Shown piece by piece: positions 1 through 1,077 of a stretch of 1,077 nt of DNA; within the stretch, counting starts at the first letter, position 1; each line of letters opens with the position of its first letter. Source of the stretch: Escherichia coli. GTDB taxonomy: Bacteria; Pseudomonadota; Gammaproteobacteria; Enterobacterales; Enterobacteriaceae. The translations under genes were made by a program, and so were the position numbers. Under the pieces are notes generated by a model, which ran no database searches, had not been told where the DNA came from, and saw nothing but the letters and a program-made list of their open reading frames with translations. The stretch is taken from assembly GCF_003334335.1 (NCBI RefSeq), contig NZ_QOWQ01000123.1. The stretch is one strand, 5' to 3'.

Positions 1-344
1 TATGACCACGCATCGGTACGTAACAGATATCCGCTACCTGTGAAATGAATCCATTCTGATTCACCAACGTCACTGGTCTGATGCGACAGCGAGTACAGCC
101 AGGCGTTATCCTTTTCCGTGATATGTGCGGTACTGCAGCGTATGCCGGCAAGGGTTGCAAACGGTGGTAGTGTGCAGGTTGACTGTTGGTCGGATTCCTC
201 CACCACGCGGAGTGAATAACCGTTTTCAGCGACCTTGTTAATCAGTTCAGTGAGATTAACACCATCGACGTCAACGACAATTCGCCCCATGTTCAGTGCC
301 TGCACATTAATTCTGTCGGCTTCCAGCATCAGGGAAAGTTTCAT
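1..344 (-). CDS. Small protein downstream of the toxin, probable YeeW/DUF5983-like; 3'-partial (runs off the window at position 1)
   Basis: ATG at 344..342 overlaps the toxin TGA (minus-strand ...AAACGATGAAAC...). I translated the frame by hand and it stays open for 114 codons to the window edge: [114 protein letters not shown]... A GGAG Shine-Dalgarno lies 5 nt upstream of the ATG. It is absent from the supplied ORF track, presumably because no stop falls inside the window. The family assignment is from recollection of conserved synteny (cbeA-cbtA-yeeW), not from recognising the sequence itself. Confidence 0.6.
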
Positions 345-715
345 CGTTTCTCCGGATGCTTACCCAGGGTAATGTTATTTACCGTTCTGTAATTGTCGCG
401 GGTCATCAGGCCGGTCGCCCGGCGAGCCCGGAGGATATCAATACTGTTTATTAACTGAGAGCGGGGACAAGTGCTGAATCCCGGCTGGTCGGTACGCACC
501 AGCGCGTATTTTTCCACGAGAAAATTCACCGCATCACACAGTGAAATGCCAGCTTCAATATGCTGCTCAATCACACGTTCATCGGCGAACGGTGTGTCAT
601 TCAGTGTAAGGCCGTAATGCTGGCCCAGTAGTCGGGAGAGCAGAGTCTGCCAGATGGTGACGGGAGACGGGCAGCTCGATGCCTCCCGTACGTGTGTATC
701 GGGTAATGTTTTCAT
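341..715 (-). CDS. cbtA: Type IV toxin, CbtA/YeeV (YpjF/YkfI) family, complete 124 aa
   Basis: Complete ORF with ATG at 715..713 and TGA at 343..341. The translation carries the conserved core I recognise from E. coli CbtA paralogs ([57 protein letters not shown]...[34 protein letters not shown]). It sits immediately downstream of a YeeU-family antitoxin on the same strand, which is the canonical gene order. The symbol is family-level; the N-terminus ([26 protein letters not shown]) may be closer to the ypjF-type paralog. Confidence 0.93.
350..353 (-). promoter_or_regulatory. Shine-Dalgarno (GGAG) for the downstream gene, embedded in the last codons of the toxin
   Basis: Minus-strand GGAGAAACGATG: GGAG followed by a 5-nt spacer and the ATG at 344..342. 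The position inside the upstream CDS together with the ATGA overlap indicates translational coupling. Confidence 0.5.
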
Positions 716-804
716 ACTGAAGGTTTTCCTGATATGCAGAGATGAAAAATGGAAAAGTGGCGTGGTGAAAGCACCAGGCCGGAGCAGAAGGTTATTCCGG
801 TGGT
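716..804. other. 89-bp antitoxin-toxin intergenic spacer
   Basis: Non-coding on the gene strand between the antitoxin TAA (807..805) and the toxin ATG (715..713). It contains short inverted repeats (ccgga/tccgg at 779..783 and 796..800; tggtg/cacca at 763..767 and 772..776) and an A/T-rich tract at 741..757. Confidence 0.5.
727..730 (-). promoter_or_regulatory. Putative weak Shine-Dalgarno (AGGA) for the toxin
   Basis: Minus-strand CAGGAAAACCTTCAGTATG: AGGA with an ~11-nt spacer to the toxin ATG at 715..713. The spacing is longer than optimal, consistent with modest toxin translation. Confidence 0.35.
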
Positions 805-1077
805 TTACTTTTTCGTTTCGGGCGTCGGATAAACAGCCAGATAAACGTAACCACAGGAGCCGAGGGTGTCAGCTTTGCAGGTCAGACCTTTTGCATACAG
901 CGTGACGGTATGCTGATGGCGGGGATTCAGTTCACCGCTGGTGAGCATGAGTTCCAGTTGTTTCATCAGCAGCGGAAAGGCCTGGTCCAGGTGGTACGCA
1001 TCTGCATCGCTGAACAGGCCTCTGATACCGGCGCGGTCGGCAAGGTAATGCAGGCGGTTACCCTCCTGCACCAGACG
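805..1077 (-). CDS. cbeA: Type IV antitoxin, YeeU/CbeA (YfjZ/YafW) family; 5'-partial, N-terminus lies beyond position 1077
   Basis: The minus-strand frame is open from the window edge (codons [90 protein letters not shown]) to a TAA stop at 807..805. From memory this matches the C-terminal ~90 residues of E. coli YeeU-family antitoxins (~122 aa) almost residue for residue. The 'M' at 1071 in the ORF track is an internal GTG (Val) codon, not the true start. The symbol is family-level; the exact paralog (yeeU/yfjZ/yafW-like) cannot be resolved without alignment. Confidence 0.92.

Follow-up and report, generated by a model that had tools for sequence, protein, structure and literature searches.

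Antitoxin and toxin genes of the cbeA-cbtA (yeeU-yeeV) family follow one another on the same strand, and in the window analysed here, a stretch of 1,077 nt of Escherichia coli DNA (contig NZ_QOWQ01000123.1), 89 nt lie between them. The question raised by this locus is whether these 89 nt take part in setting the toxin:antitoxin ratio, as the initial annotation had proposed while calling the signals weak, through partial termination, an RNA processing site or an internal promoter. The observation behind this proposal is real, if for the most part ordinary. How long the gap is was already known, and it is a clade-specific, replaceable junction, one allele of a hypervariable junction. The idea of a promoter fails and that of a terminator is weak, the sequence supporting neither of them. 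What is left is a hairpin of modest conservation and an initiation region of the toxin gene that is strongly conserved, the only two parts that look constrained in a spacer that is mostly ordinary and not a new regulatory device.

The module and its surroundings

The window holds the following genes and the spacer between the first two of them:

805–1077, minus strand: 3' part of a cbeA/yeeU-family antitoxin gene, from the list of open reading frames and the RefSeq annotation of a 99.5% identical locus
716–804, minus strand: intercistronic untranslated spacer, 89-type allele, between the cbeA stop and the cbtA start
341–715, minus strand: cbtA/yeeV-family toxin gene of 124 aa, from the list of open reading frames and the RefSeq annotation
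1–344, minus strand: 5' part of a DUF5983/yeeW-like third gene, with its start ATG at 342–344

The antitoxin stop codon is the TAA at 805–807 on the minus strand, with the 5' end of cbeA beyond the window edge, and the toxin start codon is the ATG at 713–715; the gap thus measures exactly 89 nt, the value first given for it. The overlap reported between the toxin and the third gene is equally real, consisting of an ATGA at 341–344 in which the toxin stop (TGA, 341–343) and the start of the third gene (342–344) share their bases.

The family assignments rest on Pfam, which was used because NCBIfam holds no model matching any of the three proteins. The toxin matches CbtA_toxin (PF06755) over its full length with E = 1.1e-61, in agreement with the RefSeq naming of the 99.5% identical loci, and the full-length antitoxin taken from the related locus L001 matches CbeA_antitoxin (PF06154) with E = 5.6e-53. 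The full third protein from the same locus carries the DUF5983_N and DUF5983 domains (PF25638 and PF19419). A toxin domain, an antitoxin upstream on the same strand and an overlapping DUF5983/yeeW gene downstream together identify a CbtA/CbeA (YeeV/YeeU) type IV module. In K-12, the targets blocked by the toxin of this system are FtsZ and MreB, and the antitoxin acts against the toxin without binding to it.

The cbeA-cbtA pair belongs to a prophage module that is very common in E. coli. The whole window is matched in 4,937 of the 5,426 complete E. coli genomes, at a median of three places per genome, by loci of up to 99.5% identity whose annotation is identical in layout. At the 99.5% identical locus, the module sits within an Ag43-associated island, in a co-directional row of genes in the order DUF932, antirestriction, JAB, DUF987, cbeA, cbtA, DUF5983, and DUF957. 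The gaps between co-directional genes in this island measure 54, 15, 62, 162, 89, −4, and 11 nt. Given such wide spacing among the island neighbors, the spacer is not an exception within an otherwise tightly packed cassette, contrary to how it had first been described.

On the plus strand, an open reading frame of 83 codons (654–905) lies antisense to the module and spans the start of the toxin, the spacer and the end of the antitoxin. It is probably a chance occurrence, being accompanied by no promoter-like site or other support.

Length and alleles of the junction

The length of the gap, overlooked by the initial annotation like its wide variation among paralogs, has already been published. 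The intergenic region of cbeA-cbtA in K-12 comprises 88 bases, and those of yafW-ykfI and yfjZ-ypjF comprise 20 bases each (Wen et al. 2017, PMC5371832). In literature searches, the gap was found mentioned by its length alone, in this same article, with nothing further on the spacer.

The closest known counterpart is the cbeA-cbtA (yeeU-yeeV) module in the cryptic prophage CP4-44 of K-12, where the genes, their order and their strand are identical. The 88-nt gap of this module aligns along its full length with the 89 nt of the window, and the hairpin, tail and ribosome-binding block described below are all present in it. It differs by a 1-nt deletion and a few substitutions, and it lacks the CCGG...CCGG stem. 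The pairs yafW-ykfI (CP4-6) and yfjZ-ypjF (CP4-57), as well as modules with a 46-nt gap found in E. coli, are homologous type IV pairs too, with the antitoxin first and the toxin second, a G-poor gap and a weak purine-rich Shine-Dalgarno (SD) sequence. However, their gaps (20 nt in both K-12 pairs) do not align with the 89-nt type, and a hairpin is missing from them.

Spacers of the 89-type occur at 10,304 places in 4,679 of the 5,426 complete E. coli genomes, and no annotated feature lies under the spacer among the 40 matches listed of these 10,304 places. The unrelated 46-nt type is found in E. coli at 2,466 places in 2,011 genomes, flanked by coding regions about 90% identical to those of the window. 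Across 80 related loci from other Enterobacterales, the gap ranges from 19 to 294 nt, with 20 nt as the commonest length and further lengths of 24, 34–38, 41, 49, 54–63, 69–70, 88–89, and 294 nt, and the spacer sequences of different types cannot be aligned to each other. Gaps of 20 nt and of 46 nt being common as well, a length of 89 nt is not required.

The replacement of one spacer by another can be followed in individual loci. The toxin of L083 is 94% identical to that of the window, yet its gap is of the unrelated 46-nt type. In this locus (positions 1100–1210) and in L147–L149 (about 560–640), the antitoxin's final codons have been exchanged together with the entire gap, between the 89-nt and the 46-nt types. 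Since these codons change along with the gap, the junction behaves as an exchangeable cassette, and the module does not depend on the length of this junction. The boundary between antitoxin and toxin marks a recombination junction. No repeats common to the spacer and the rest of the island were found, which leaves an origin from a repeat or mobile element unsupported.

Some relatives may carry a whole extra gene at this junction. In L010, from Trabulsiella odontotermitis, the gap of 294 nt (1207–1500) contains an open reading frame of about 80 codons (MTHACKISDIV...), for which no Pfam match was found, and L012, from Citrobacter amalonaticus, has the same layout. A smaller change is seen in one E. 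coli allele (L144, 566–674), where the loss of 1 nt close to the end of cbeA shifts the stop codon 9 nt into the spacer, so that the first dozen spacer bases are translatable in nature. The remaining gap of this allele is 80 nt, and a 4-nt insertion lengthens the stem of its hairpin.

Constraint and structure within the spacer

Several elements can be distinguished within the 89 nt, listed here in the direction of transcription:

779–800, minus strand: first stem-loop, CCGG-N14-CCGG, −5.6 kcal/mol
759–780, minus strand: hairpin GGC.CUGGUG-CUUU-CACCA.C.GCC, of 8 bp with a 1x1 C/C mismatch
743–758, minus strand: interrupted U-rich tail ACUUUUCCAUUUUUCA, read directly from the sequence
716–737, minus strand: nearly invariant toxin translation-initiation region, GCAUAUCAGGAAAAYCUUCAGU
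713–736, minus strand: predicted weak local hairpin, pairing AGG (of the SD) with CCU, and CAUAU with AGUAUG (which includes the start codon)

Sequence diversity was estimated from a metagenome scan with a pattern taken from the 3' end of the gap, which, pooled with the fetched loci, gave 114 loci with 56 distinct spacers. With the end fixed by the pattern left out, the overall diversity of the spacer is 0.134, against 0.141 and 0.182 at the third codon positions of the antitoxin and the toxin, respectively. The spacer as a whole therefore evolves at close to the neutral rate. The diversity of single segments was determined in 20 loci chosen without reference to their spacer sequence:

Spacer positions 1–24: 0.132
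Spacer positions 25–46, hairpin block: 0.056, within the lowest 2.6% of 22-site windows of third codon positions
Spacer positions 47–67, U-rich tail: 0.128
Last 22 nt: 0.018, lower than in any of the 22-site windows of third codon positions (minimum 0.051)
Third codon positions as the reference: 0.147

By this measure, the constraint on the spacer is strongest in its last 22 nt, just before the toxin ATG, which correspond to the ribosome-binding region of the toxin and had been overlooked in the initial annotation. The first 24 nt, including the stem-loop at 779–800, appear neutral. Among the secondary copies in the fetched contigs, no locus of the 89-type has a divergent 3' block. The invariance of the 22 nt could also reflect gene conversion between paralogs, or the binding of some other factor.

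The initiation region itself is predicted to be weak. An SD-like AGGA lies at 727–730, 10–11 nt before the AUG, and its duplex with the anti-SD sequence is worth −4.3 kcal/mol, against −13.5 for the consensus SD. The other gap types have equally weak sites of the GAG type, located 5–8 nt from the AUG. The local fold at 713–736 reaches −4.4 kcal/mol and is not significant (z = −1.29), and its columns are almost invariant, which precludes a covariation test there. Control of the CsrA type was considered by eye and dropped, as only one GGA is conserved and this is the SD itself, the second (CCGGAAU) being CCAGAAU in K-12.

The reading considered here to be somewhat better than evenly supported takes the 89 nt as an untranslated leader of the toxin, from which the toxin would be translated weakly and uncoupled from the antitoxin. 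The spacer, which is non-coding, would be an intercistronic leader inside a long transcript of the prophage island, running from the DUF932 to the DUF957 gene, and its working part would be the ribosome-binding region of the last 22 nt or so. With the cbeA stop 89 nt upstream and an SD that is both weak and unusually distant, toxin translation would start afresh at a weak site instead of being coupled to that of the antitoxin. This site may in part be masked by the weak local fold. The expected result is a toxin output below that of the antitoxin, with the third gene remaining coupled to the toxin through the ATGA overlap. The weakness of initiation in this scheme is a thermodynamic prediction. 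The operon is reported to undergo no autoregulation by its toxin or its antitoxin (Wen et al. 2017, PMC5371832). As part of the same reading, and with the same slight preference, the roughly 45 nt outside the hairpin and the ribosome-binding region would be neutral filler.

Upstream of the ribosome-binding region, the initial annotation had counted two short stem-loops, of which one survives. Folding of the minus-strand RNA, which had been suggested as a check, makes the hairpin at 759–780 stand out, although the spacer folded in full is not unusual (z = −1.57; 13 of 200 shuffles fold equally well). The stem-loop at 779–800 is rejected as an inverted repeat of chance level. Of its central pairs, G19-C36 is broken in 35 and G20-C35 in 16 of the 61 distinct natural variants, no covariation or compensation is found in this stem among these variants, and its counterpart in K-12 reads CCAG...ACGG. 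The question of whether the repeats are conserved among related loci receives a similarly divided answer: the 759–780 hairpin is moderately conserved, and both the 779–800 stem-loop and the U-rich tail are neutral.

The hairpin at 759–780, with the arms GGCCUGGUG-CUUU-CACCACGCC, is worth −11.6 kcal/mol in a context of 30 nt (z = −3.8), with none of 200 shuffles being as stable. Its stem has six G-C pairs and contributes −10.1 kcal/mol by itself. The version found in K-12 reaches −12.7 kcal/mol (z = −4.2), and the hairpin is present at −8 kcal/mol or better in 57 of the 61 distinct variants. In the larger sample, the diversity of the stem is 0.061, compared with 0.156 in the rest of the spacer and 0.166 at third codon positions (P about 0.003); relative to the latter, the stem diversity is lower by a factor of about 2.5. 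From these comparisons, it appears to be the only element upstream of the ribosome-binding region with some constraint, and a moderately conserved one.

Whether this constraint acts on base pairing is less clear. One genuine compensatory change, from C-G to U-A, occurs in L235, along with a few wobble changes. An apparent change from U-A to C-G at one pair is an alignment artefact, as the divergent 'B' allele folds in a different register. In a hand count, about six single changes in the stem break a pair and about four keep it, a ratio near a rough and uncomputed expectation without structural selection. RNAalifold did not recover the hairpin, with 0 compensatory pairs, and an Rfam scan of the window at E values up to 10 gave only a chance match (E = 7) outside the spacer. 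Stability and moderate conservation without convincing covariation speak for a sequence that is stable and conserved to some degree, and not for selection on the pairing itself.

The same data bear on the most serious alternative, according to which nothing outside the ribosome-binding region is functional, the hairpin being a neutral or hitch-hiking relic of recombination between paralogs and the extra length filler. This account is clearly less probable than that of the untranslated leader, but it deserves to be kept in mind. The overall spacer diversity near that of third codon positions, the missing covariation, the stem pairs broken in natural alleles and the exchange of the whole junction as a cassette between near-identical modules all speak for it. 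So do the other spacer types, which lack the hairpin and have non-significant folding z-scores. Against it stand the stability of the hairpin, far above that of shuffled sequences both in the window and in K-12, and the reduced diversity of the stem relative to the other spacer sites and third codon positions. In the 'B' allele (GGUGC-GCUACA-GCACC), moreover, loop and tail have been replaced, and a 5-bp G+C-rich hairpin nevertheless remains at the same place.

Should the hairpin be functional, it might favor the antitoxin part of the mRNA, acting either as a leaky terminator or as a protector of the 3' end after cleavage in the AU-rich tail. This is a tentative model, about on a par with the relic account. 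A more far-reaching version, in which the hairpin and the nearly invariant 22-nt block form a joint post-transcriptional control point setting the toxin:antitoxin ratio, is doubtful. Such a control point could work by processing, attenuation, or the binding of a small RNA or protein, and could switch the type IV system on. If the hairpin or the initiation block does set the ratio, it would provide an entry point into how CbtA-type toxins stay silent or are released; the activation route of the type IV system has been described as an open question (PMC5371832).

Termination, Rho and other readings of the gap

The T-rich string pointed out on the minus strand by the initial annotation, CACTTTTCCATTTTTCATC, is present in the sequence. 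Together with its U-rich tail, the hairpin at 759–780 might be read as a leaky Rho-independent terminator that would leave less toxin than antitoxin mRNA. The stem of 8 bp with six G-C pairs, at −10 to −12.7 kcal/mol, is moderately conserved, it is followed by ACUUUUCCAUUUUU, and its position directly after the antitoxin stop fits such a role. Among the marks of an intrinsic terminator, the G+C-rich stem-loop is present, but an uninterrupted and conserved U tract is not: the U run begins 2 nt late and is interrupted, and the tail ACUUUUCC has 4 U within its first 8 nt. Moreover, the tail evolves neutrally. Natural alleles replace it by CUCUCCUCAAAAUUUAAU or ACUGUCCC, and in only 28 of the 61 variants do the 8 nt that follow the stem contain 5 U or more, while 14 have 3 or fewer. 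A terminator scan gave no call at this hairpin.

The island itself offers a standard of comparison. Three clear terminator-like sites are found in it, after the IrmA, DUF905 and DUF957 genes, with stems of 11–13 bp, about −20 kcal/mol and 5–7 U, whereas the spacer stem, at about −10 kcal/mol with 4 U, has half their stability. On these predictions, the strong terminators would flank the whole operon and not the cbeA-cbtA gap. In L001, the three hairpins lie at 3221–3259, 3530–3569 and 7459–7495, two of them upstream of DUF932 and one after DUF957, and so bracket the row from DUF932 to DUF957. Two of the three have the common tail TGGC(T/G)TTTTCATTTAT.

The genes cbeA and cbtA (yeeU/yeeV) are absent from the supplements examined for three genome-wide studies of 3' ends or processing, among them one that mapped 3' ends in E. 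coli. The latter absence is weak evidence against termination in the gap, because the locus has been reported to be poorly expressed (PMC5371832). Taken together, a leaky terminator is rather unlikely. Judged by hairpin and tail, it is possible for the alleles of the window and of K-12, and would not be a conserved property of the 89-type. The proposal of partial termination or processing is thereby narrowed to the 759–780 hairpin, with a neutral tail and a stability well below that of the island terminators counting against it.

Unequal expression within an operon is well known from the terminator T1 between rpsU and dnaG and from the 3'-stabilising hairpins in the malEFG and pap operons. Like leaky internal terminators and intercistronic stem-loops of this kind, the cbeA-cbtA gap begins its non-neutral part with a stable hairpin right behind the upstream cistron and continues into single-stranded, AU-rich RNA, and the expected outcome is likewise more upstream than downstream product. 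In contrast to them, its hairpin is predicted only, is half as stable as the terminators of its own island and is followed by a U tract that is not conserved.

A further mechanism of polarity would be the loading of Rho onto the untranslated, C-rich and G-poor gap behind ribosomes stopped at the end of cbeA, reducing expression of cbtA and yeeW. A rut site calls for some 70 nt or more of RNA that is untranslated, unstructured, rich in C and poor in G, and 20–24 nt are too short for Rho loading. The spacer has 34% C and 15% G over its 89 nt, and the predicted weak initiation of the toxin would leave the RNA bare. The bias also extends to all spacer types of the family, whose C/G ratio is 2–4 compared with about 1.1 in the flanking genes. 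However, this includes gaps of only 20–24 nt, which most family members have and which are equally biased, and the composition may instead reflect selection for an unstructured initiation region. In addition, the stable hairpin in the middle of the gap takes up a quarter of its length, and a literature search yielded no Rho-related data for the locus, so that this mechanism is quite improbable.

Apart from the question of Rho, gap types other than the 89-type are nearly unstructured, their folding z-scores being non-significant. Independent gaps across Enterobacterales that cannot be aligned to one another (for example L006, L014, L057, and L069) show the same depletion of G on the coding strand and almost no predicted structure.

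The idea that the toxin has its own transcript from an internal promoter is scarcely tenable, since it draws on the general notion that 89 nt could hold a promoter and on nothing in the sequence: neither strand of the spacer or its vicinity shows a sigma-70 pair of −35 and −10 elements spaced by 15–19 nt at 9/12 matches, none at 8/12 with the key −10 bases required, and the A/T-rich stretch that might offer a −10 element evolves neutrally.

Just as remote is a translated spacer, either as an upstream open reading frame of 20 codons starting with GTG (712–774) or as a read-through extension of CbeA, with translation coupled to the toxin. The frame from the cbeA TAA to the TGA of the ATGA contains no stop codon, the GTG reading frame ends in the ATGA of the toxin start, and the frame is open in 42 of the 61 variants. 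However, in 19 of the 61 it is not kept open and in 17 the short reading frame is lacking, the combination of start, frame and stop not being conserved. Insertions and deletions of 1 nt give 88-nt and 90-nt alleles with a shifted frame, among them K-12 and the commonest allele of the metagenome sample; the GTG has no SD and lies within the hairpin stem; and, by our own calculation, chance alone would leave 29 codons open in about 40% of cases at this G-poor composition. Both versions were rejected on these grounds.

Modules of this family were also met on contigs from genome bins labelled Collinsella, Lachnospiraceae, Clostridiales and Chryseobacterium (L004, L005, L045, and L017), with toxins 53–89% identical to that of the window (86–89% in L004 and L005). 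These look like mis-binned or contaminating enterobacterial DNA, not true hosts, and the two closest of them sit on very short contigs. A rearranged tandem arrangement is present in a viral-database contig (L152, positions 190–2470 of IMGVR_UViG_651053022_000002 in IMG/VR), in the order cbeA, spacer, chimeric truncated cbtA, second cbeA, second spacer, cbtA, and DUF5983. The second cbeA of this locus is fused to an extra N-terminal sequence, and both of its spacers are of the 88/89-nt type.
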